Source: Escherichia phage T4
DNA: 64,000 nt
Reading direction: 5' to 3' (one strand)
Sequence record: OL964735.1
The first letter of the stretch is position 1. Each line of letters starts with the position of its first letter. Below, in pieces: positions 773-63,987 of this stretch. The notes under the pieces are model-generated. The model was not told where the DNA came from. It ran no database searches and saw only the letters and a program-made list of their open reading frames with translations. The translations under genes and the position numbers were made by a program.

Positions 773-1032
773 AAAAGATTCCTTTTAATGTATCTTTTAG
801 ACCATTCTATCATATCATCATAATCTAAAAAGTATTCATCAAATTCAGCCATGCAAACAACGCCTTGTGCTGTTTTTGATGTGATATAAATTATTCCAAC
901 ATATCTAGAATCTTCTTCGGTATAATCAATATTTGCTATGAATTCATCATTAATGTCAAATGTCGAAAACTTCACAGTATGCATCCTTAATACAAGATAC
1001 AGCCATATCTCGTAATGATTTAGGTGTGTCAT
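769..1032 (-). CDS. hypothetical small protein (T4 46.1 position); start may be the internal ATG near 984
   Basis: ORF track; packed between 46 and 47. Confidence 0.35.
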   Translation of the reverse strand: MTHLNHYEIWLYLVLRMHTVKFSTFDINDEFIANIDYTEEDSRYVGIIYITSKTAQGVVCMAEFDEYFLDYDDMIEWSKRYIKRNLL

Positions 1033-1219
1033 TATCTAAAATGTTGAAGTTAAAAGATACAGCCCAGTCAGTGCAGACAGTAACCTTTTTAATACAATTA
1101 TCTTCAACCTCTAACGGTTCAAACCAGTATTCAATAATTTCTTTATGACCAATATCATCTTTTACTTCACATTTAAAATGCTGACTCATCATAACATTTT
1201 TAAATTCATCAAAAGTCAT
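956..1219 (-). CDS. hypothetical small protein (T4 46.2 position)
   Basis: ORF track; stop/start overlap with gene 47. Confidence 0.4.
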   Translation of the reverse strand: MTFDEFKNVMMSQHFKCEVKDDIGHKEIIEYWFEPLEVEDNCIKKVTVCTDWAVSFNFNILDNDTPKSLRDMAVSCIKDAYCEVFDI

Positions 1220-2235
1220 TGTGTTGCCTCTACATATAGCTGATTTGCATATTGAATAAGTGCTTCACGGTCAGAATCAGTGATGTCTGGAATTGCATTA
1301 ATATACTCTTCCATTAATGTCTGAAGCGATTGAACTTCAACTTCTTCACTGTCATCTGACTCGACAGAGTTATCAATCTTTGACACAACTCGTAATGAAT
1401 GCACAACTTTTTCTAGTTCAGATTCGAACTTCGTCAGATTTTTGTCTACTTCAGTTACTATAACACGTACTGATAGATTTGTAAAATCTTTATAGTCAAT
1501 TTTTCCTTTAAATGGATAATGAATTCTACGATGCCAGGTAGTATTGTTTGGAATAAATTCCGTTCGTTCTGTTTCTGTATCAAACATCCAGAACCCACGA
1601 GGGTCATTCTCGTCACCTGCGGTTAGTGTCCATGGTGTCCCAATATATCTGACGTTTGCAGCCTCAGAAATAGTATGGAAGTGACCAGACCACACTTCTT
1701 TATAAGTCTTAAGGAAATCGGGTTCAAGACCATGAGATTTCATTCCTTTATAAAAATAAAATCCATTCAGTTCCCAGTGACCAACACAAAAAGAAGCAGA
1801 TGAAGTTTTGATATGCTCAAGAATTTCACCAGTATTTTCTTCGCACATCCAAGGAATCAAATCAATCAAACACCCGTCAAAATCTACTGTAGTAGGCTTA
1901 TCATACACTTTAACATTAGGATATTTAGCCAAAAGCTCAGTAGAAGCATTTGGATGCATTACATTTTTATAGTGGAGATCGTGATTTCCTACAATAGTGT
2001 GTAATGTAATTCCAGCATCATCAAGCGTTTGAACTATTTCACGGGCAAACTCCATAGTTTTATGTGTGATCGCTTTTCGCACATCAAAAATATCACCGTA
2101 TTGAATCCAGGTAGTAATTCCATTTTTCTTAGAATATTCTATCGCTTGCTTAATTCCATCAATTTGAATACCGCGAATCCACTCATCATCAGCTTTAACG
2201 CCTAAATGCCAATCACCTAAATTTAAAATTTTCAT
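1216..2235 (-). CDS. 47: Recombination nuclease subunit gp47 (SbcD/Mre11-like metallophosphoesterase)
   Basis: 339 aa as in T4 gp47; calcineurin-like phosphoesterase motifs (GDWH, GNHD, GHWE/GH). Confidence 0.9.
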   Translation of the reverse strand: MKILNLGDWHLGVKADDEWIRGIQIDGIKQAIEYSKKNGITTWIQYGDIFDVRKAITHKTMEFAREIVQTLDDAGITLHTIVGNHDLHYKNVMHPNASTELLAKYPNVKVYDKPTTVDFDGCLIDLIPWMCEENTGEILEHIKTSSASFCVGHWELNGFYFYKGMKSHGLEPDFLKTYKEVWSGHFHTISEAANVRYIGTPWTLTAGDENDPRGFWMFDTETERTEFIPNNTTWHRRIHYPFKGKIDYKDFTNLSVRVIVTEVDKNLTKFESELEKVVHSLRVVSKIDNSVESDDSEEVEVQSLQTLMEEYINAIPDITDSDREALIQYANQLYVEATQ

Positions 2236-2391
2236 ATATCAAGAACCGTCATTGAAATGCAAAATAAAATTATTGAAATAAATCCATCTGGAGTGCTAAA
2301 GAACCCAATCCAACATGCTCTAGTGAATAGATAAAATGCAAGAAAAAGTATCACATATCCAAGAAATATCATTATATCAAACTCCGTATAA

Positions 2392-2412
2392 AGCTAAAGG
2401 GCCGAAGCCCTT
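2392..2412 (-). terminator. Intrinsic terminator after a-gt
   Basis: GGGC-UUCG-GCCC hairpin followed by UUUAGCUUU. Confidence 0.5.
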
Positions 2413-3614
2413 TATTTTGTAATAATGTCAAACTGTTCTTTAAAGCAGAAGCTTGAATCTTGATGCTGATACAAAAATTCATATGCTTTTTCTCGCTCAC
2501 GGTCATAAAGAGCTCGGTCAGATGACAGTTCTTTAATACGTTCAAATGTTGATTCCATATCATTTTCATCAAACCAAATGATACCGCTATCATGCGAGGT
2601 CAAAGGAGTATTATCAACACGGAATTTTAAATTTTCGCCAGTAGATTTCCAAAATACCGGAATTGTTCCACATGCACCAAGCTCGAGATGAGTATATTCG
2701 AGTGAGCGTTGTAAGTATTTCTGGTTAAGTTTACTCAACTGATATCCAAAGCCAGATTTACTCATTCGTTCAAGCATTTCACTATTAATATAACAATCTA
2801 GGATTTGTGCCGGTTGATTCGGCGCGAGATTCATTTTATCAATCTCACGATTACCGTAATATTCATACGGAATACCTTTTTCCTTAATTGCAATAAAAGC
2901 AGGGGAACGTTCCAGACCTTCCATTACAGTGGATTTACCAGCAGGTTTTAAGAATTTTTCATGAAAATCAAACATCTGGTAAAAACCTTTCCATGTAGTC
3001 GTACGACCAATCCAACGGTTGATATTCATGTTAATTTCAGAAACATCTTTCCAATAAGTTGACCGAACCTTCACAATATCCATAGGAGGCTGAAAATTAT
3101 ATACTGTCGGTGCTTCTTCAATATCATCAAACAGAGAAACAGTTTCTGGATACCATTCTTTCATCAGAACTTTATTAAAATCACCATTATCAGAATGGCT
3201 AAAAATAACATCAGCTCGACGAACAGTTTCTTCTAATCCCAAATTTCGACGCAAAGAAAGAACAGAATGATCATGCTGATAAACTACAACACGAATAGAA
3301 GGTTTAATATTATCTAAAAGTTTTTTATAGTTATTAATCGTAGCTTCTTGAACGGAAGTAGCAGGAACAGAATTAATAATTAGAATATCACAATCATTTA
3401 CTAGCTTAAGTGCTTTATCGTATTCTTTAGCTAAAATAACTGGAATTGAAAATGATTTGTGGTCATGAGAACTTGTACGAGTAAATGATTTATCTTTAGC
3501 ATAAACCAAAGTTACTTCATGACCATTTTTAATAAACCAATCACGTTGCTCGAGTGAGAATTTTGTTACACCACAACCTTCAAGACCTCGAGCCATAAAA
3601 ATGCAAATACGCAT
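2412..3614 (-). CDS. a-gt: DNA alpha-glucosyltransferase (glucosylates hydroxymethylcytosine DNA)
   Basis: 400 aa; N-terminus MRICIFMARGLEGCGVTKFSLEQRDWFIKNGHEVTLVYAK matches my recollection of T4 alpha-gt. Confidence 0.9.
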   Translation of the reverse strand: MRICIFMARGLEGCGVTKFSLEQRDWFIKNGHEVTLVYAKDKSFTRTSSHDHKSFSIPVILAKEYDKALKLVNDCDILIINSVPATSVQEATINNYKKLLDNIKPSIRVVVYQHDHSVLSLRRNLGLEETVRRADVIFSHSDNGDFNKVLMKEWYPETVSLFDDIEEAPTVYNFQPPMDIVKVRSTYWKDVSEINMNINRWIGRTTTWKGFYQMFDFHEKFLKPAGKSTVMEGLERSPAFIAIKEKGIPYEYYGNREIDKMNLAPNQPAQILDCYINSEMLERMSKSGFGYQLSKLNQKYLQRSLEYTHLELGACGTIPVFWKSTGENLKFRVDNTPLTSHDSGIIWFDENDMESTFERIKELSSDRALYDREREKAYEFLYQHQDSSFCFKEQFDIITK

Positions 3615-3672
3615 AGTTTTCCTCTTTTCATTTAATAAATCATGTAAATAATATTTTATTTTCTATAAAACG

Positions 3673-4467
3673 CTACGAATAGGCCCAAACATATCCATAA
3701 GCAATTTTGCTTTTTCCAGATATGCACTTTTTAATATTAGACATGCATCCTTTAACGGATACAGCTGCGTCTTTAATTCTAGGAAATACTCGTAATAATT
3801 TTCCAGTAGTATCATATTGAAATACTGGCACATTTCTTTTCTGAGTTATCCCACGTTTAGATTTAGACATTTTTTGTTTAGTTGCATTAGACATCCTAGA
3901 GGGCTTTCCTATGTTATCAGAATAATAATATTTCCATTGAAATCCTCCAGCGGTTTTCCTTTTACCATCTACACATTGTTTAATTGAAGTTGAACAGCTA
4001 TATGACATATCTTCTGCAGCATCTGTAATACATCTATATTTGCGAATAAAATTTCCATTTAAATCATATTGATAAATTGGTTTTCCAGCATTTCGTCTAG
4101 CGTTAGACATGTATTTTTTATTATCATCATCTTTCCAGAACTCTTTCATGCTTTCCGATATTGAAGAAGATACAGCTGTTTTAATCCATCCATACATTTT
4201 ATTATTTAGTCTTGTTCCGTCAGAACTATAACACATCATACGAATAGCTAAAGCCAATTTAGGAAGTCTATAAATTTTAAATAATAATAAATGCGCGGTA
4301 AAATGTTCTTCTGGTGTCAAAAGAACTAAATTAGTTTTATCATCTGTACCACCCATACATCTAGGAATTATATGATGTGTTTCAGTATAGTATGTCAAAA
4401 GACTTTTATCATTGCCTCTGTTTAGTCCTTTTTCGATCAGTAAATTATATATGTTTAAATAATTCAT
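3673..4467 (-). CDS. mobB: HNH homing endonuclease (free-standing, mob-type)
   Basis: 264 aa; HNH motif ETHHIIPRCMGGTDDKTNLVLLTPEEHFTAH; position between a-gt and 55 as T4 mobB. Confidence 0.7.
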   Translation of the reverse strand: MNYLNIYNLLIEKGLNRGNDKSLLTYYTETHHIIPRCMGGTDDKTNLVLLTPEEHFTAHLLLFKIYRLPKLALAIRMMCYSSDGTRLNNKMYGWIKTAVSSSISESMKEFWKDDDNKKYMSNARRNAGKPIYQYDLNGNFIRKYRCITDAAEDMSYSCSTSIKQCVDGKRKTAGGFQWKYYYSDNIGKPSRMSNATKQKMSKSKRGITQKRNVPVFQYDTTGKLLRVFPRIKDAAVSVKGCMSNIKKCISGKSKIAYGYVWAYS

Positions 4468-4502
4468 TTTAGTTTATTTTACCAAAAAATTTATAAAGCA
4501 AT

Positions 4503-4522
4503 ATAGGAGCCGAAGCTCCTAT
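4503..4522 (-). terminator. UUCG-loop hairpin (possible terminator)
   Basis: AGGAGC-UUCG-GCUCCU with U-rich tail. Confidence 0.45.
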
Positions 4523-4710
4523 CCACATAATACGCCATACAGAGGCTCGTTAGAACTTTTAAATTTTATGCGCTTATATGTTATAGTTCCTTCTGCTTTA
4601 GCTTTATCATGAGCCTCTTTAAAGCGTCTCATCATTTCCTCTCTAGAGGAACGAATTTTATTATAATCTATTTCAGAAGTCGGATGTTCATCTTTCACAG
4701 TTGCCACCAT
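4519..4710 (-). CDS. hypothetical small protein (a-gt.2-like)
   Basis: ORF track; tight packing. Confidence 0.4.
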   Translation of the reverse strand: MVATVKDEHPTSEIDYNKIRSSREEMMRRFKEAHDKAKAEGTITYKRIKFKSSNEPLYGVLCG

Positions 4711-4901
4711 TTTTTGACTTGATAAGAATCAACCCACACTTTCATATTAGGGTCTGCTCTTACAATAGGAGGATTAACTTCTTTGATTGAACTATCACGG
4801 TATTCTTTTTCAGAAATTTTCACGCAAAGATGACCATTCAAAGATTCAGTAAATCCTGCATTAATTTTAAGACGCTTGAATTTTACGTGTGTAAGCATCA
4901 A
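4695..4901 (-). CDS. hypothetical small protein
   Basis: ORF track. Confidence 0.4.
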   Translation of the reverse strand: MMLTHVKFKRLKINAGFTESLNGHLCVKISEKEYRDSSIKEVNPPIVRADPNMKVWVDSYQVKKWWQL

Positions 4902-5184
4902 TCATATCCTCAATCTGCGATCTAGTAGTCTTCCAAAGAATACTGATGAGTTCATCGTTATATGGCTGTTTTAGAATATCCCGACTTTTCTTGATAGCAT
5001 ATTCGTATTGAGCAAAATTATTATTTTCAGCTGCGATCTGAGCGTGCTTATAAAGACGATTCAGTTCGCGTTTGTTTTTAGACAATAACTTATTTGCTTT
5101 TCTTTCTGCTTCAAGACGGTTCTTTTCTTCAATAGAAGAAATAAGCTTTTCCACTTCATCATTAATTTCGGGTTTATCAGTCAT
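4867..5184 (-). CDS. hypothetical coiled-coil protein
   Basis: ORF track; 105 aa, charged and helical. Confidence 0.4.
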   Translation of the reverse strand: MTDKPEINDEVEKLISSIEEKNRLEAERKANKLLSKNKRELNRLYKHAQIAAENNNFAQYEYAIKKSRDILKQPYNDELISILWKTTRSQIEDMIDAYTRKIQAS

Positions 5185-5185
5185 A

Positions 5186-5431
5186 TTATTTCTCTAATAT
5201 AAAATAAAAATCATCATCTGTTAAATGATACCGATAGTTTAATTCTACACCATTAGATTTAAAAGCGGTATCATACGGATTTTCTGGATCAATATCAATG
5301 TCAAGAGCTAAAACTTCCCTGAGATACATTTTAAGTAAATAGGGAATAGCTTCAACTTCAGGTATTTCTTCCAAGAATCCGGAGAGGTTAATCGTTAGCC
5401 TCATATAAAAAATCCAAACTAGGAGAATCAT
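5186..5431 (-). CDS. hypothetical small acidic protein
   Basis: ORF track. Confidence 0.4.
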
Positions 5432-5945
5432 CTACAACACTTTTCTTTTCAGCCCCCGGTGTTCTATAGGTTGATTCTTCGTAATGCGTCATTTTATCAT
5501 AGATGTCTTGAATAAAAGTTTCATCTACTAACGCAACCATATCGTCGTCACGGCTGTCATAGACATTGTGAACGAAGTAACTATATTTCTTTGCAACTTC
5601 CTTACGTTCTTTTTTAATACGTTGGACGAATGCATTAAAACAAGCTTGAGTTATATACGCATGTGGGTTTTTATATTTCGTTTCATCAAAATTGTGAAGC
5701 CCCTTAATAGAAGCTTCTATACCATCTGCAATCATTTCTTGTTTCCAAGACTGGGTGTATCCTGAAAAGTTGAAACGTTTAGATAAGCCTTCTGCAATAA
5801 GCATAATGGCTAATCCGATAGTATCATTCTGACGAACTACTTTATTTGGGTCTTTATTATTTGCTAATTCTGTTTTCCAATCAATAATAGCTTGTAAAAG
5901 CTCTTTATTGTTTACGTAATTATATTTAGGCTTAGTTTCTGACAT
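5388..5945 (-). CDS. 55: Late-transcription sigma factor gp55
   Basis: 185 aa from ATG at 5945 (track start 5951 is a GTG); sequence [58 protein letters not shown] matches T4 gp55. Confidence 0.92.
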
Positions 5946-6027
5946 TTTCACCTCTTAGCTCAATTCATAGATCTATTATATCATAATATTTGAAGACCTA
6001 TCTTAAAGCATAGAGGATGAATCAATT

Positions 6028-6243
6028 TCAAGCATTCATCAGATTAGCCGCTCCAAGAGCTGCATCTAGTGAATCAAATTGGTCAACATATTCAATTAAT
6101 TCGCCGTAATTAGCGTATAACCACCATTGGCTAAATTCATACTCAAGGATGAATCCATTTCCTTCAATTTGAGTTAAACCAATGCCATTTGTATTTACTT
6201 CATACCCAGCGAGACGTAAATCGTTAATAAGAGCTTCGTTCAT
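6028..6243 (-). CDS. hypothetical protein (55.1-like)
   Basis: ORF track. Confidence 0.4.
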   Translation of the reverse strand: MNEALINDLRLAGYEVNTNGIGLTQIEGNGFILEYEFSQWWLYANYGELIEYVDQFDSLDAALGAANLMNA

Positions 6244-6245
6244 AA

Positions 6246-6572
6246 TTATACCTTAGTAATTTTCAGGTCTGCAAATTTTTTCTTGCGTTGATTTTTCATG
6301 CGACGAATAGTTTTATCGGAAATTTCATGCTTTTGATAAGCTTTAGATTCTACACCAAAAGCTTTAACATCAAATTCTGACAAGATATATTGAACCAACA
6401 ATTCACGGACAGTATTGCGTCCAATCTTCTGATCATTCTGTTTCATCGTTTGATGAAGCTCTTTTTCCCATTTATCCAAAATTTGAGGAGTTACAATATC
6501 GCCTTTTTCTAGCAAAGAAACTACTTTATCATATGCGTAAGAATTGATGGCGTTTTTAATTTGAATAGTCAT
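6246..6572 (-). CDS. hypothetical protein (55.2-like)
   Basis: ORF track; 108 aa. Confidence 0.45.
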   Translation of the reverse strand: MTIQIKNAINSYAYDKVVSLLEKGDIVTPQILDKWEKELHQTMKQNDQKIGRNTVRELLVQYILSEFDVKAFGVESKAYQKHEISDKTIRRMKNQRKKKFADLKITKV

Positions 6573-6603
6573 ACATTATCCTCAATTACGTTAAAATTTT
6601 ATT

Positions 6604-6626
6604 ATCCAAAAAGGGCCGAAGCCCTT
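6604..6626 (-). terminator. Intrinsic terminator
   Basis: AGGGC-UUCG-GCCCU followed by UUUUUGG. Confidence 0.65.
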
Positions 6627-6825
6627 AGCTAAACTTTTTGGCACCCTTCCAGCCTTCGTACATCATTGCGACTGACAATGACAAAGCTCCTTCACATGCT
6701 GCATACTTATTATTCCAGAACCAATTTAGAAAAACTTCATCCTCAATACCGTTGTGTTTCATGTTCTGGAAAAATTTGGCGCGTTCTTCAGCAATTCGCT
6801 GCGATAATTTAGATTCAGGATTCAT
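6625..6825 (-). CDS. hypothetical small protein
   Basis: ORF track; followed by terminator hairpin at 6604-6626. Confidence 0.4.
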   Translation of the reverse strand: MNPESKLSQRIAEERAKFFQNMKHNGIEDEVFLNWFWNNKYAACEGALSLSVAMMYEGWKGAKKFS

Positions 6826-7041
6826 TTAAATTTCCCAATTGCCATTTTCATCAATAAATTTAATCCAGTCATTTACTGACCACTTGGTCGTATCGCCTTT
6901 TGGAGTAACATTTAAAGTGTATAGCCCTTGCTTAAAAAGCATGCGTTTGATATTCATATTTTCCTCAGCTGTAACGATAACACTCGTTTGATTTACGTTT
7001 AGCAACTCGTTGAGAAGTATTATAATCAAAATCATCATCAA
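6826..7041 (-). CDS. hypothetical small protein
   Basis: ORF track. Confidence 0.35.
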   Translation of the reverse strand: MMMILIIILLNELLNVNQTSVIVTAEENMNIKRMLFKQGLYTLNVTPKGDTTKWSVNDWIKFIDENGNWEI

Positions 7042-7255
7042 TGTAAACTGATTTTTTCAACTTTCTTACTTCACCGCGTAATTGACGATTTAACTCATCT
7101 TTAACTTCTGAATCAATACCTTTCATTCTACGCCATTTATCTGAGCGAAAAATGTTTTCAACCATATCTTTATGACTTACCCCATCAGGAGCTTTACGCT
7201 TTCCGAAATAGTCATAATCACGCACTTTTAAGTCTTTACGACGATACGTTTTACC
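6965..7255 (-). CDS. hypothetical basic protein (possible nucleic-acid binding)
   Basis: ORF track 6965..7303; internal start MGKTYRRKDLKV preferred; Lys/Arg-rich. Confidence 0.35.
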   Translation of the reverse strand, partial: GKTYRRKDLKVRDYDYFGKRKAPDGVSHKDMVENIFRSDKWRRMKGIDSEVKDELNRQLRGEVRKLKKSVYIDDDFDYNTSQRVAKRKSNECYRYS

Positions 7256-23938: not shown

Positions 23939-24157
23939 TTAAACTCTCGTATTATGATCGATAATTTCATCAAGAAACATATCTAACGCTTCTACAGCAT
24001 TATTAACTTTAGCTTCAAATTCTTCAATACCTGATAAGGCAAAGTTAATGCGTTCCTCATCTGCTTTACGAATTAAAGCTACCAATTCCTTAATTTTATC
24101 CGCTTGTTCGATACTAATCATTATTCCACCACATATGAAAGAGAGAATATTGCACAC
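23939..24157 (-). CDS. hypothetical small protein
   Basis: ORF track. Confidence 0.35.
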
Positions 24158-25094: not shown

Positions 25095-25307
25095 TCATTT
25101 TTGTCCTGTATTTACTTTGTGCCGATGCACGGCCTTAACTTTATCAAGGTATTTTTCAAAATTTCGCAATCTAGTATAGTCTGCCGGAGATTGGTTGAGT
25201 GATACTTCTCGACGCAAAGCTGAAATGATATTTCCAACTTCCCTACGAATTTCATCTAATTGAAGAACAGTAAGATTGCGAAGTTGCTTTTCAGTTAATT
25301 GTAGCAT
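25095..25307 (-). CDS. hypothetical protein (rI.1 position)
   Basis: ORF track; 70 aa. Confidence 0.45.
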
Positions 25308-25349
25308 ATATACCCCTTTAGTTAGATAAACCTATTTATAACTTTTGCA

Positions 25350-25931
25350 CTAACCGAGCTTTTTAGTTAATTCATTCCAATGTTTTCTACACAAAGAAAC
25401 ATAAATTTCATCACCAATACAAATTTGATTACCTTCTTTAACTGGTGTTCCATCTTCCATTAATCGAGCTGTCATAATCGCTTTTTTACCACAATGACAA
25501 ACTGCTTTTAGTTCAATAAGTTTATCTGCAATCGCTAAAAGTTCTTTAGAACCTTCAAATAATTTTCCAGCGAAATCAGTCCTTAGCCCATAAGCCATAA
25601 CAGGAACATTATATGTATCAACAATTCGGCTCAATTGATGCACCTGTTCAGTTTTTAAAAACTGAGCTTCATCTACAAATACGCAATGAATATCTTTTTG
25701 TGCTTCAGCCCATTTATAGAACTCGAAAATATCCATATCATCTGTAATAATATTCGCTTCCTGCTTAATTCCAATGCGAGAAACGACTTCACAGACAGAA
25801 TCGCGAGTATCAATAGCAGGCTTAAGAACTAATACACTCATTCCACGTTCTTTATAATTATGTGCAGCAGTCAAAAGAGAAGCAGATTTTCCAGCATTCA
25901 TTGCTGCATAAGTAAAAATTAAACTCGCCAT
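25350..25931 (-). CDS. tk: Thymidine kinase
   Basis: 193 aa; P-loop MNAGKS, zinc-ribbon CHCGKKA...C; matches T4 Tk. Confidence 0.9.
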   Translation of the reverse strand: MASLIFTYAAMNAGKSASLLTAAHNYKERGMSVLVLKPAIDTRDSVCEVVSRIGIKQEANIITDDMDIFEFYKWAEAQKDIHCVFVDEAQFLKTEQVHQLSRIVDTYNVPVMAYGLRTDFAGKLFEGSKELLAIADKLIELKAVCHCGKKAIMTARLMEDGTPVKEGNQICIGDEIYVSLCRKHWNELTKKLG

Positions 25932-25932
25932 C

Positions 25933-26121
25933 TTAGTCCTTAGTTAAATTTTCTAAATATGTTTCTAAATCATTTTCAGCTTTATCGATAGATTTTACTA
26001 ATTCGTAATATGTTTCGGCATCTCCATATTCAGAAGATATTTCAAAAGACAAATCCTTTTCTAAACTAATAATTTCACCAACTAAAAATAATATTTCGTT
26101 CTTTTGTTCGCGAGTAATCAT
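25933..26121 (-). CDS. hypothetical small acidic protein (tk.1 position)
   Basis: ORF track. Confidence 0.4.
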   Translation of the reverse strand: MITREQKNEILFLVGEIISLEKDLSFEISSEYGDAETYYELVKSIDKAENDLETYLENLTKD

Positions 26122-26309
26122 AAGGAATTTATATAATCAATGAGTTCTTGTTCTTTATTATCGAATTCTTTAGAAAGTTCTTCGTACTCGTTTGCGCTAA
26201 AAGGACCGCATTCATTACAAACTTTTTCCAATTCACTATTTTTATCCATAACTTCGTGGATAAGAGAAAAGAGTGTGTCTTTTTGTTCTTTGCTTAAACT
26301 CATAACCAT
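26118..26309 (-). CDS. hypothetical small acidic protein (tk.2 position)
   Basis: ORF track. Confidence 0.4.
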   Translation of the reverse strand: MVMSLSKEQKDTLFSLIHEVMDKNSELEKVCNECGPFSANEYEELSKEFDNKEQELIDYINSL

Positions 26310-26527
26310 GTCACCTTTAAGCAGTATTCTTCTACATGCTGTTTACGACCTTTCTTATCAATAAAGGTATATTCAACGAATGTTCCAATGTAGTCTTTAT
26401 CTACATCATGTGGACTATTAATTGGACATTTAGTGCGACAAATGCGTTCCCATTGACGAATAATTACTGCCTTATTCTTTGGGTCATATGGATGTGGATA
26501 ATGTATATTCATAATAATGGTTCCCAA
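26300..26527 (-). CDS. hypothetical small protein (tk.3 position)
   Basis: ORF track. Confidence 0.4.
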   Translation of the reverse strand: MGTIIMNIHYPHPYDPKNKAVIIRQWERICRTKCPINSPHDVDKDYIGTFVEYTFIDKKGRKQHVEEYCLKVTWL

Positions 26528-26976
26528 TCAACAATCACAATTTCTAATTTAGAGGAATATGTATCTAAAATCCCCTCAATAATATCCCAGTTCCCTTTAC
26601 CTATGCCTGCACCAATCCTAGGCATATAGATTGTAGGTTTAATCAGTTTATTTTCACCAAACTCATTTAATTCTAACATACAATTCATTAAAGCGGAATA
26701 CTCAAAATTTGGCCCTGGTTGAAATTGAGTATAAAGATTGAAGCAGTAAGCTTTATGAGTCCTAAAGTATTTTTCATAGACTGAGTAAGAACCGAGTTTA
26801 GTTACATCACCCCATTCAGTCTGTAATTTATCAGCTTCCAAAATTTTAGGGAAAGCTTTGGTTAATTGACCCGCTACGCCTGAACCCATAGTATGAAAAC
26901 AATTACATCCATGTGCAATATTTTTACCTTCAGCGAAAAGGGCGACAATATCGCCCTTGATATATTTTACAATCAT
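26509..26976 (-). CDS. Macro-domain protein (predicted ADP-ribose binding/processing)
   Basis: 155 aa; KGDIV...NIAHGCNCFHTMGSGVAGQL and PRIGAGIGKG resemble the macro-domain N-terminal and glycine-rich phosphate-binding loops. Confidence 0.5.
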   Translation of the reverse strand: MIVKYIKGDIVALFAEGKNIAHGCNCFHTMGSGVAGQLTKAFPKILEADKLQTEWGDVTKLGSYSVYEKYFRTHKAYCFNLYTQFQPGPNFEYSALMNCMLELNEFGENKLIKPTIYMPRIGAGIGKGNWDIIEGILDTYSSKLEIVIVDWEPLL

Positions 26977-27320
26977 CTAGTACTCAATCCTCGATTATAA
27001 GAATCTACCAAACGGTCAACCATTGAATGACAAGCGGCTTTATCTTTCTCCTCCGCAACTGAACATTCTAAGGTATTCCACTTTTTAGCATATCGTTTTA
27101 ACAATGTATCGTTTTTGTATCTGCTTGATTTATCTCTTTCTCCGTCTTTATATGCATATATTAATTTCTGTGCAAATTCAGCTTGGCATGCCTTATTTTT
27201 CCCACAATAATCTGCCGCAGTGCGGTTTACATATTCTCTAATTTCAGTATATGATGTATCTGCTGACGCAGAAGCAGAAAATGAAATTAATCCTATACAT
27301 AAAACCAAAATTTTAGTCAT
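26973..27320 (-). CDS. vs: Secreted protein with cleavable signal peptide (T4 vs position)
   Basis: 115 aa; MTKILVLCIGLISFSASASA then mature part with 4 Cys; named by position only. Confidence 0.4.
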   Translation of the reverse strand: MTKILVLCIGLISFSASASADTSYTEIREYVNRTAADYCGKNKACQAEFAQKLIYAYKDGERDKSSRYKNDTLLKRYAKKWNTLECSVAEEKDKAACHSMVDRLVDSYNRGLSTR

Positions 27321-27858
27321 TTACTATTTCCAAAAGTTTATTATTTTTAAGGTAATTAGCCTTTTCTAGGACTTCAGAAGCATATTTAGAACCTGCTTTA
27401 ACATTCCATCCCGAATTATAAGAGGATATTGCTTTTCTTATATCGCCCTTATGTATATTTAACCAATAAGAAAGTTCAATGTACGCCCAGGAAGCTGAAT
27501 TGGATCGTTTATTCAACATTCTTTTTATTTCAGCATCGGTCATATTATAACCAAGTTCCTTAACTCTTGCTCGCATAGTAGGCAAATAATTTTGGAACAT
27601 TCCGTAGGCGTGATGCTTTGGTTTAGATTTTAAATTAACTCCGCCAGAGCTTTCTTGCCATAAAATGGCAGCCATTATATGACCTAATCCGCTCTTGTGG
27701 ATATTTTTGTGTGTTTTATATTTTCCATCCTTAGAAAATTGTTCCCCGAATTGATACGCGTAACGCATGTTATCGAGTTGGACATTACTGAAAGTATGCT
27801 CGGAGCTATGTGCCATCATTGAAATGGCCAATAGACCAGCGAGTAGTGCTTTTCTCAT
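27313..27858 (-). CDS. Periplasmic lytic transglycosylase-like protein (SLT domain)
   Basis: 181 aa; signal peptide MRKALLAGLLAISMMAHS; catalytic-region pattern ILWQESSGG...AYGMFQ. Confidence 0.5.
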   Translation of the reverse strand: MRKALLAGLLAISMMAHSSEHTFSNVQLDNMRYAYQFGEQFSKDGKYKTHKNIHKSGLGHIMAAILWQESSGGVNLKSKPKHHAYGMFQNYLPTMRARVKELGYNMTDAEIKRMLNKRSNSASWAYIELSYWLNIHKGDIRKAISSYNSGWNVKAGSKYASEVLEKANYLKNNKLLEIVND

Positions 27859-27865
27859 GCTTACC

Positions 27866-28327
27866 TCATTGAGTTTTAATTACTGCTTTAGAAGCCTTTC
27901 CTGGTAAACGACGACTGTTGATAATTGCCATCCTACATTGAAGTGACGGGTCTTTGAACTTCTCGTTAGGTTTACAAACTGTAAATCCAAGCCAAAGATT
28001 TCCATCTGTGATTTCTAAACGTCCAGGACGATATTCAACCCCATCAATAAAATCCTCGTCAATGTCAGGACGCGGAGGCATACTCAGGAATTCATTAACT
28101 TCTAAAACATGGTCTTTTATTTTATGGAATAATTCAAAAACGTATGTCTCATCAATCTCCCGTTGAATTGCGCGATCAAGAAGATGTTGAGAATATTTTA
28201 GATGAAACGATGAGACTCCTGCTGCTTTTGATGCCTCACGAATCTCATTGTTAATTTGACGAAACTCCGACTCAAAGTGACGACGAAGCTTATTTCGACG
28301 GATAAAAACTTCTGTATTGATAGTCAT
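27866..28327 (-). CDS. regB: RegB site-specific endoribonuclease
   Basis: 153 aa; sequence and position as T4 RegB; TATAAT/GTTTAC promoter at 28355-28384. Confidence 0.85.
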   Translation of the reverse strand: MTINTEVFIRRNKLRRHFESEFRQINNEIREASKAAGVSSFHLKYSQHLLDRAIQREIDETYVFELFHKIKDHVLEVNEFLSMPPRPDIDEDFIDGVEYRPGRLEITDGNLWLGFTVCKPNEKFKDPSLQCRMAIINSRRLPGKASKAVIKTQ

Positions 28328-28354
28328 GTTATTCTCCTCTTAACTGATAGAAAA

Positions 28355-28384
28355 ATTATACCACAGTCAAGAGGAAAAGTAAAC
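28355..28384 (-). promoter_or_regulatory. Early promoter for regB
   Basis: GTTTAC -35 and TGGTATAAT extended -10. Confidence 0.6.
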
Positions 28385-28386
28385 AG

Positions 28387-28707
28387 TTATTCTTTAAATC
28401 TAATCAATTTATTCATAGACTTTGAAACTTCGGCACGAACCTCATGTAGATTTTTGAGCTGTTCAAGACGCTGCGTATAGTAAGCAATTTCATCTTCTTC
28501 GAGACAGTCCTGCGAATCTTCTTTAAGATAACGTGCATAGTCCTGGAAAGCGTTACGGACTACTTCCTGGAAGTCATCAAGACTTTGAATTTTCTTAGGA
28601 GCAACAGATACACGACGAGGGGCAGTATAATACTCATAACCAAACCCTGCGCTTAATTGAGCCATTAGTATTTTTCCTCTGGTTGGAACACTGCACGACA
28701 AGCCCAC
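28387..28707 (-). CDS. hypothetical protein (vs.3 position)
   Basis: ORF track; 106 aa. Confidence 0.4.
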
Positions 28708-28931
28708 ATACTGGCTTCTTTGAGTTTCGTTTTAGCAATAGTTAACTGATCGAGACTTTCAGCATAATTCTTCGCGAATTCACAGTCTTCGCAATTATCT
28801 AGTGCTTCCCAGAATTCATCATATAAAGCATCAAAGATAAGTCCTAAACGAACTTCAGCGTCTTTAATAGCATTTACTTTACCGATTTTCTCTTCAGTAT
28901 GTGGTTTATAACCCTTAATATCTTCAATCAT
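28665..28931 (-). CDS. Small acidic protein at vs.4 position; candidate Acb2-type cyclic-nucleotide sponge
   Basis: Track ORF 28665..28967 starts at TTG; ATG at 28931 gives 88 aa ([14 protein letters not shown]...); assigned by gene order and size, not sequence-verified. Confidence 0.4.
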
Positions 28932-29145
28932 ATTTGACTTCCTCACCAGTACATAAATCGTATTCAACTAAACGAATAGGTTCATGAATGCCATAGCCTT
29001 GAACAGAAATTTCTGTCGTAGGATAAATTCCATCAATATCACCCATATTCCACGCTTCATTAAATTGCTGTTCGCCTGAGTTACTAAACCACTCGGCGAA
29101 AGCATTTAGCACATCTTCAGAACCTTCAATAATTATCTTTGCCAT
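28924..29145 (-). CDS. hypothetical small acidic protein (vs.5 position)
   Basis: ORF track. Confidence 0.4.
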   Translation of the reverse strand: MAKIIIEGSEDVLNAFAEWFSNSGEQQFNEAWNMGDIDGIYPTTEISVQGYGIHEPIRLVEYDLCTGEEVKYD

Positions 29146-29507
29146 TACAAACTTTCAGTAAAGGTACGAGCGATAACGTCGCGCTGCTGTTCCGGAGTCA
29201 GAGAGTTAAAGCGAACTGCATAACCGGATACACGGATGGTCAGCTGCGGATATTTTTCCGGATGCTTAACTGCATCTTCCAGAGTTTCACGACGCAGAAC
29301 GTTAACGTTCAGGTGTTGACCACCTTCAATTTTAACTGTAGGTTGTGGCTCAATTTCAATTTCACGGGCATGCAAACCATAGAAAATTTCTGGGTCTACA
29401 AAAGAGTCCTCTTTAAAGGTTTTAGAGACAATAATTCGTGCTTGAATACCATCTTCAAAATAAATAGTACCTTTATGTGTGCCTTCAAGAATTTGATATG
29501 CTTTCAT
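29145..29507 (-). CDS. GrcA/YfiD-like glycyl-radical cofactor protein
   Basis: 120 aa; C-terminal [59 protein letters not shown] has the glycyl-radical fingerprint RVSGY; the 3' half of the gene (about 29150-29350) is GC-rich with enterobacterial codon usage. Confidence 0.75.
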
Positions 29508-59103: not shown

Positions 59104-60805
<1,702 letters not shown>

Positions 60806-60846
60806 TAAATATTATAAACTAATTAAAGCCCGGATTAGGAGAAGTC

Positions 60847-63987
<3,141 letters not shown>

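Follow-up and report, generated by a model that had tools for sequence, protein, structure and literature searches.

DarG, the antitoxin of DarTG, requires its catalytic Lys80, and the K80A mutant is inactive (PMC5179494). SCO6735 from Streptomyces coelicolor cleaves thymidine-linked ADP-ribose on single-stranded DNA and rescues cells from DarT; activity is lost in the Q85A/E mutants, almost lost in N27S and reduced in G128E. In this enzyme the distal ribose is positioned by the Gln, and an activated water is proposed to start the reaction (PMC9411070). PhiKZ gp104, independently named AdfM, strips DarT2 marks from DNA in vitro (PMC13309987). Adpp of Vibrio phage Gary (KNV71_gp137) converts ADP-ribose-1''-phosphate to ADP-ribose, after which NARP1 rebuilds NAD+ against aRES (10.64898/2026.01.28.702374). 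That phages carry stand-alone ADP-ribose erasers against DNA ADP-ribosylation by toxin-antitoxin defences is real and timely biology.

In phage T4, HIDEN-SEQ of a transposon library on a DarTG2 host yielded tk.4 as the only significant hit, and a clean tk.4 deletion sensitised T4 to DarTG2, whereupon the gene was renamed adfM; the same preprint of November 2025 noted the similarity of Tk.4 to M. tuberculosis DarG and stated that ADP-ribose removal from DNA "seems likely" (10.1101/2025.11.20.689424). RefSeq describes tk.4 as "phosphatase; contains A1pp phosphatase motif", and the smart00506 A1pp match of its orthologues was reported in a comparative genomics study in 2006 (PMC1524935). The macrodomain of Tk.4, annotated about 20 years ago, and its anti-DarTG2 role, reported in November 2025, are therefore already known, and the macrodomain call made from the sequence at the first stage adds no discovery, since both are in the literature. 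A paper with biochemistry of T4 Tk.4 was not found in a full-text literature search.

The window analysed here is the whole stretch of 64,000 nucleotides from Escherichia phage T4 (OL964735.1). A sequence-only reading of the window had placed a 155-aa ORF for a macrodomain protein at 26509-26976 in the tk-regB early region, and we found that this ORF is real: over 3.1 kb, the surrounding sequence matches phage T4 at 100% identity, and T4 annotates the same ORF as gene tk.4 (T4 coordinates 60922-61389; window position = T4 position minus 34413); it also has homologues and a Pfam match. The strand, which that reading did not give, is minus. The order of genes on the minus strand is regB, vs.1, vs, tk.4, tk.3, tk.2, tk.1 and tk, which confirms the placement, and neighbouring genes from vs.1 through tk.1 share overlaps of 4-8 nt. 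The features of the locus, in window coordinates, are as follows.

26509..26976, minus strand: coding sequence of tk.4 (adfM), a single macrodomain; ATG-to-TGA ORF of 155 aa.
26973..26976, minus strand: ATGA, overlap of the vs stop (TGA) and the tk.4 start (ATG), TAGATGATTG; vs is 61386-61733 in RefSeq.
26944..26958, minus strand: N-terminal KGDIV, residues 7-11; first strand-loop, which lines the adenine/ribose pocket in related macrodomains.
26878..26913, minus strand: loop 1, HGCNCFHTMGSG, residues 22-33, with His22 and the catalytic-site Asn25 (codon 26902-26904), then the first glycine-rich turn, MGSG, which binds phosphate.
26725..26739, minus strand: NLYTQ, residues 80-84, with the Gln84 codon at 26725-26727.
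26587..26622, minus strand: loop 2, PRIGAGIGKGNW, residues 119-130; second glycine-rich, diphosphate-binding loop.
26509..26512, minus strand: ATGA, overlap of the tk.4 stop and the tk.3 start, ATTATGAATA; tk.3 is 60713-60925 in RefSeq.

The ATGA overlap between vs and tk.4 suggests that translation of the two genes may be coupled. A consensus scan of positions 25200-29200 gave 15 promoter-like sites, where chance alone predicts 14.9, and 3 terminator-like sites, where it predicts 1.7, and because these counts are no more than chance, we make no claim of a dedicated tk.4 promoter. No promoter features are annotated around tk.4 in the GenBank records.

The Pfam Macro model (PF01661) matched residues 22-132 of Tk.4 with 27.7 bits (gathering cut-off 22), and also matched 62 of the 74 aligned Tk.4 family members. 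AlphaFold2 on the single Tk.4 sequence gave a pLDDT of 38.6 and an unusable fold, and this model was replaced by one made with the 74-sequence alignment, which reached a pLDDT of 95.7 and a pTM of 0.90 and showed alternating strands and helices in a three-layer α/β/α macro fold. Both glycine-rich phosphate-binding loops are present, MGSG at residues 30-33 and IGAGIG at 121-126. A PDB search with the Tk.4 family profile matched five groups with E values from 1e-18 to 6e-14, and hhalign of the family against an alignment of DarG and TARG1 gave a probability of 99.3%. The nearest neighbours of Tk.4 by structure and profile belong to the ALC1-like class (TARG1/DarG/Poa1p/SCO6735), apart from the other macro classes. 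Yeast Poa1p is a phosphatase of a by-product of tRNA splicing. These results confirm that Tk.4 is a macrodomain protein, predicted to handle ADP-ribose. The original macrodomain call was thus right by Pfam, by predicted fold and by the conservation of both loops; the motifs quoted for it are all present in the ORF, with coordinates checked by translation, and neither a non-macro fold nor missing glycine loops, the two outcomes named as speaking against it, was found (G33, G122 and G124 are each kept in at least 259 of 260 sequences). A second macrodomain of the Tk.4 type was absent from the T4 genome.

We aligned 260 Tk.4 family members plus reference proteins with MAFFT, and took the residue equivalences from profile and multiple alignments together with a published structure-based alignment. 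In KGDIV, which aligns with RGNLL of TaqDarG and KGDLF of TARG1, G8 is kept in 250/260 sequences and position 9 is D or N in 259/260. In loop 1, N25 and G33 are each conserved in 259/260 sequences and H22 in 246/260; H22 and N25 align with H24 and N27 of SCO6735, and N25 also with N22 of DarG. Residue Q84 falls in the column that holds the catalytic lysine in DarG (K80) and in TARG1 (K84) and, in SCO6735, the essential Gln85, both by hhalign and by the independent MAFFT alignment, in which Q84 and N25 of Tk.4 pair with Q85 and N27 of SCO6735. Gln occupies this position in 259/260 family members and also in SCO6735 and BT1257, and Lys occupies it in TARG1, TaqDarG, MtbDarG and PhiKZ gp104. Among the T4-like syntenic homologues, one (L029) carries Lys at residue 84. 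Loop 2 is equivalent to G126/G128 of SCO6735 and G117-G121 of TaqDarG; G122 is invariant (260/260), G124 is found in 259/260 sequences and W130 in 252/260, and Lys127 of T4 replaces the consensus Gly of the family. Taken together, the alignments predict an active site of the glutamine type, made up of His22, Asn25, Gln84 and Gly122/124.

This active site separates Tk.4 from the lysine-dependent members of the class. The DarG proteins of T. aquaticus (5M31) and M. tuberculosis (5M3I) have the catalytic Lys80 where Tk.4 has Gln, and DarG has a C-terminal DarT-interacting domain, whereas Tk.4, with 155 aa and a single domain, lacks it. TARG1 (human OARD1) uses a Lys84/Asp125 dyad, and Tk.4 has Gln84 and Gly126 there. 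The NCBIfam DarG model NF048014 scored 30.3 bits on Tk.4 against a cut-off of 250, matching profile positions 2-146 of 338. In T4, no darT gene lies beside tk.4, the adjoining genes being vs and tk.3. In 80 bacterial loci with Tk.4-type genes, no DarT2 match was found by tblastn at E<=1e-3 with one DarT2 query, a search that very divergent DarTs could escape; the bacterial genes are stand-alone, and their neighbours are lineage-specific housekeeping genes. We also considered descent of Tk.4 as an orphan DarG antitoxin from a DarTG operon and rejected it, since Tk.4 lacks the catalytic Lys and the C-terminal domain and has no DarT neighbour; with no DarT2 match near the bacterial Tk.4-type genes in the one-query search either, this descent is unsupported, and "orphan DarG antitoxin" is for Tk.4 a functional analogy, not ancestry. 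A supposedly bacterial homologue from a Bacilli MAG (P0072) was set aside, because its contig, with Rnl1, Pnkp, a Dda-like helicase and a spanin, is that of a T4-like phage and is uninformative on bacterial context.

The Gln of Tk.4 is common to SCO6735 (PDB 5E3B) and its relative BT1257 (PDB 2FG1/2AFC), which are glutamine-type, ALC1-like macrodomains, and the activity of SCO6735 means that a Gln-type member of this class is able to carry out the thymidine-ADP-ribose reaction. The two proteins differ in several respects. Tk.4 is 21% identical to SCO6735 and has the motifs HGCNC..MGSG and YTQ, whereas SCO6735 has HVCND..WGKG and IGQ. The DNA-positioning residues K34 and K89 of SCO6735 are missing from Tk.4, which has S32 in the K34 column and a post-Gln loop that is 5-6 residues shorter than the long mobile loop of SCO6735 and contains no Lys. 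SCO6735 is encoded by a bacterial chromosomal gene, Tk.4 by a phage counter-defence gene.

By sequence, Gary Adpp is the closest biochemically characterised relative of Tk.4 (35% identity over 140 aa, E 2e-23; both in PHROG 335). The Gary homologue, as located by tblastn with Tk.4, is flanked by a PRPS-like and a Nampt-like gene. Homologues of Adps and Namat were absent from the whole T4 genome (best E about 1) and from within 6 kb of about 31 T4-like syntenic loci, so that a role in rebuilding NAD would have no downstream pathway in T4. In an Acinetobacter phage, a homologue with the exact Tk.4 motifs directly follows a Namat-like gene, and the active-site motifs do not separate NARP-adjacent from T4-syntenic members. 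T4-syntenic members mostly have a shorter post-Gln loop than 8 of 9 NARP-adjacent members do, a weak hint of a separate subfamily from a small sample without phylogenetic independence. As a marker of specificity, the length of this loop was tried and rejected: the DNA hydrolase SCO6735 has a long loop too, which leaves loop length as a subfamily marker only.

The family is widespread. A word-indexed search found 203 Tk.4 homologues at E<=1e-3, a full profile scan found 1,235 clusters at 50% identity with E<=1e-30, and tblastn gave matches in 2,846 of 50,697 phage records (about 5.6%). Identity to Tk.4 over the phage records falls into discrete classes, with 156 at 99% or more, 64 at 95-99%, 159 at 80-90% and 2,457 below 60%. 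Among 79 IMG/VR loci, about 31 belong to T4-like phages in which the gene sits between regB and tk as in T4, and 7 others have a Namat-like gene within 6 kb. In one T4-like contig (L042), the flanks are 95-100% identical to T4 over regB, vs.1, vs, tk.3 and tk, and the identity falls to 46-74% exactly over the tk.4 ORF, whose protein is 58% identical. This swapped allele and the discrete identity classes, as read from the sequences, fit allele swapping at a counter-defence locus, a signature of an arms race.

We consider that Tk.4 is probably a glutamine-type, SCO6735-like hydrolase that removes DarT2 ADP-ribose from thymidine in T4 single-stranded DNA. In a cell with the DarTG2 toxin-antitoxin defence, DarT2 is the toxin, which ADP-ribosylates thymidines in single-stranded phage DNA and blocks replication; tk.4 lies in a tightly packed run of small same-strand genes, in a region that the sequence-only reading called early, and its product would hold the ADP-ribose moiety with the two glycine-rich loops and hydrolyse the bond between ribose C1'' and thymine, releasing free ADP-ribose and normal DNA. 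Catalysis would proceed through the Gln-type site as in SCO6735, not through a lysine as in DarG and TARG1. The genetic need for tk.4 was established by others, and our analysis shows the fold, the clade, the replacement of Lys by Gln in the active site and the lack of DarG and NARP features; what the protein does chemically, that it acts on DNA and when it is expressed are what we infer. The genetics, the near-invariant active site, the precedents of SCO6735 and gp104, the lack of metabolic partners and the allele swap argue for this hydrolase and make it the likelier reading; we counted against it that the closest characterised relative, Adpp, is a phosphatase with NARP-adjacent relatives bearing the motifs of T4, that equivalents of K34 and K89 are missing, that identity to SCO6735 is low and that no darT adjacency was found in the bacterial loci searched. 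A test for reversal of DarT-type DNA ADP-ribosylation had been suggested from the sequence, and this matches the genetics of the later preprint, in which tk.4 is the sole T4 gene required against DarTG2. The sequence-only reading had left a choice between an eraser and a sponge for ADP-ribose-containing molecules: the eraser is favoured by the genetic requirement for tk.4 against DarTG2, and the sponge is unsupported because the catalytic-site residues are almost invariant.

The other readings were weighed against the same evidence. Tk.4 may also, or primarily, be an ADPR-1''-phosphate phosphatase like Adpp, or may hydrolyse 1''-substituted ADP-ribose broadly, a single site then acting both on the small molecule ADPR-1P and on thymidine-ADP-ribose in DNA, with protection from DarTG2 as one of its two activities; this and DNA hydrolysis are not mutually exclusive, and we regard it as possible but distinctly less probable. 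It is weakened by the genome of T4, which without Adps or Namat gives the phage no means to convert ADPR back to NAD+, and by the same lack at the T4-like syntenic loci; moreover, the post-Gln loop is shorter in T4-syntenic members, again in a small, non-independent sample, and the sole reported tk.4 phenotype is against DarTG2, a DNA modifier (10.1101/2025.11.20.689424). It is likewise no more than tentative that the Tk.4/Adpp subfamily (HGCNC...YTQ...IGAGxAGGDW) is one broad Gln-based hydrolase of any C1''-linked group on ADP-ribose. If so, the same site would erase thymidine-ADP-ribose and dephosphorylate the ADPR-1''-phosphate from RES-type NAD+ phosphorylases, "AdfM" and "Adpp" would be one enzyme in different genomic contexts, and Tk.4 would blunt two unrelated defences. 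Protection without catalysis, in which Tk.4 binds and inhibits DarT2 or shields its product, has some precedent, since the dead SCO6735 Q85A inhibits DarT in vitro, more than dead DarG or TARG1 do (PMC9411070), and full-length DarG inhibits DarT by contact (PMC5179494). The contact inhibition by DarG, however, needs the C-terminal domain, and the K80A macrodomain alone gives none (PMC5179494), whereas Tk.4 is a bare macrodomain; in addition, H22, N25, Q84, G122 and G124 are near-invariant in the 260 sequences, which indicates selection for the active site, not for a toxin-specific surface, and we judge this reading improbable.

T4 encodes three ADP-ribosyltransferases (Alt, ModA and ModB), and Tk.4 could in principle erase or tune their ADP-ribosylation or RNAylation of host proteins. 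This reversal, brought up in the sequence-only reading, found no support: alt, modA and modB lie about 48-62 kb from tk.4 in the T4 genome and are unlinked to it, and the class is reported to act on Glu/Asp esters, thymidine and 1''-phosphate, while Alt and Mod modify arginine in the classic literature. No growth phenotype without DarTG2 was reported for tk.4 either (10.1101/2025.11.20.689424), and we hold a role on the phage's own marks to be very unlikely. Least likely of all, if by a small step, is that Tk.4 sequesters or degrades immune signals derived from ADP-ribose, such as Thoeris-type cyclic ADPR, because the closest relatives hydrolyse 1''-linked groups, the catalytic residues are conserved and tk.4 was the single hit in a DarTG2 screen (10.1101/2025.11.20.689424). 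Reversal of CmdT mRNA ADP-ribosylation by Tk.4 was also considered and is unlikely, because wild-type T4, which carries tk.4, is still strongly blocked by CmdTAC.

The present analysis refines the known picture in three respects: Tk.4 has Gln, not Lys; the closest relative with characterised activity is a phosphatase of a small molecule, acting against another defence; and two unrelated clades bear the name AdfM. It raises the question of whether this widespread phage family is DNA-specific, ADPR-1P-specific or promiscuous. Net charge and pI were tried as a proxy for DNA binding and dropped, because the proven DNA hydrolase gp104 has a pI of 5.05 (Tk.4, 5.9), so that pI is uninformative.

PhiKZ gp104 and Tk.4 are alike in being stand-alone phage macrodomains, in the name AdfM and in the defence that they target, DarTG2. 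But gp104 is of the DarG clade and the lysine type (E 9e-25 to MtbDarG, with an FPTK motif), whereas Tk.4 has Gln at that column, and BLASTP of gp104 against Tk.4 aligned only 23 residues. The chimallivirus protein enters the phage nucleus by import, and T4 has no phage nucleus. Judged from their sequences, the "AdfM" of T4 and that of PhiKZ are two macrodomain lineages recruited against the same defence. Tk.4 is far closer to Adpp (35%) than to SCO6735 (21%) or to gp104 with its 23-residue patch, and it shares with Adpp the motifs H-x-C-N-C, Y-x-Q, including the Gln, and IG[AC]G[IL]AGG[DN]W. Adpp is likewise a phage anti-defence gene product, but it acts against aRES and Tk.4 against DarTG2; its post-Gln loop is 7 residues longer, and its gene sits between Adps and Namat and its substrate is a small molecule, whereas T4 has neither partner gene.

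The T4-like phage contig IMGVR_UViG_3300010279_000005 (L042) and a second T4-like phage, IMGVR_UViG_2974573495_000001 (L029), both carry a macrodomain gene at the place of tk.4, and a third contig, IMGVR_UViG_3300045988_128797 (L005), carries a Tk.4 variant with 99% identity:

L042, 6001-6465: counterpart of tk.4 (window 26509-26976)
L029, 6001-6450: macrodomain gene in the regB-to-tk slot
L005, 1827-2291: Tk.4 variant

We found that regB, vs.1, vs, tk.3 and tk of L042 were 95-100% identical to their T4 counterparts, whereas the tk.4 stretch reached only 46-74% identity, a drop confined exactly to tk.4, and the encoded protein was 58% identical to T4 Tk.4. The L042 tk.4 is an allele replacement with breakpoints at both ends of the ORF. 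At position 84, the column of the catalytic Lys of DarG/TARG1, the L029 macrodomain has Lys in place of Gln (NLYTKFRPG), and its GIGGLEW loop resembles the loop of DarG/TARG1. In a family alignment made separately, Lys at this position was found in only one of 260 sequences. The first phosphate-binding loop of the L005 protein reads TMKAG, compared with TMGSG in T4, and its Lys replaces a Gly kept in 217 of the 260 family sequences. A 2021 study lists a tk.4 Ser36Gly polymorphism among T4 stocks.

In T4 itself, the following genes of the region and their annotation were considered:

vs.4, window 28665-28931, minus strand: same strand as tk.4 and 1.7 kb upstream of it
tk.3, window 26300-26512: RefSeq product name 'Tk.2'
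mobD.4, window ~23939-24121: 60 aa, RefSeq product 'molybdopterin-guanine dinucleotide biosynthesis protein MobD'

We take vs.4 of T4 to be Acb2, the anti-CBASS sponge. Vs.4 and Acb2 are named together in papers, and if the assignment is true, this block of small genes holds two counter-defence genes, vs.4 and tk.4. Product names in RefSeq NC_000866.4 (segments L084 and L085), those of mobD.4 and tk.3 among them, seem to have arisen from colliding gene names or over-transfer of annotation. The same record gives 'dextranase' as the product of dexA.2 and 'iduronate sulfatase' as that of imm.1.

Stand-alone chromosomal Tk.4-type macrodomains with 35-43% identity were common in several bacterial lineages, for example Desulfobacter, Ruegeria and Hymenobacter (loci L091-L168). 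Their conserved neighbours were lineage-specific (an ArgC-like reductase, an amino-acid ABC transporter, an M23 peptidase), and no DarT adjoining the Tk.4-type genes was found in these loci. On contigs binned as bacterial MAGs or genomes (L001/L089, JBOFGC010000414.1, a 'Bacilli bacterium' MAG; L092; L115), the macrodomain gene adjoins T4-type genes (Rnl1, Pnkp, a Dda-like helicase, a spanin, tk and vs.1-like genes); these contigs are probably mis-binned phage DNA.

Two phages carry a Tk.4 homologue together with PRPS-like (Adps) and Nampt-like (Namat) genes, lying within them or immediately after them:

Vibrio phage Gary (locus L002), L002 positions 4132-7162
Acinetobacter phage vB_AbaM_B09_Aci02-2 (locus L003), L003 positions 905-4474

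The Gary homologue is Adpp, a published ADPR-1''-phosphate phosphatase (10.64898/2026.01.28.702374), and the active-site motifs of the Aci02-2 homologue are exactly those of Tk.4. The name AdfM was coined independently for T4 Tk.4 (10.1101/2025.11.20.689424) and for PhiKZ gp104 (PMC13309987). BLASTP aligned the two proteins over a stretch of only 23 residues, and they belong to separate macrodomain clades, T4 Tk.4 being Gln-type, whereas PhiKZ gp104 is Lys-type and DarG-like.
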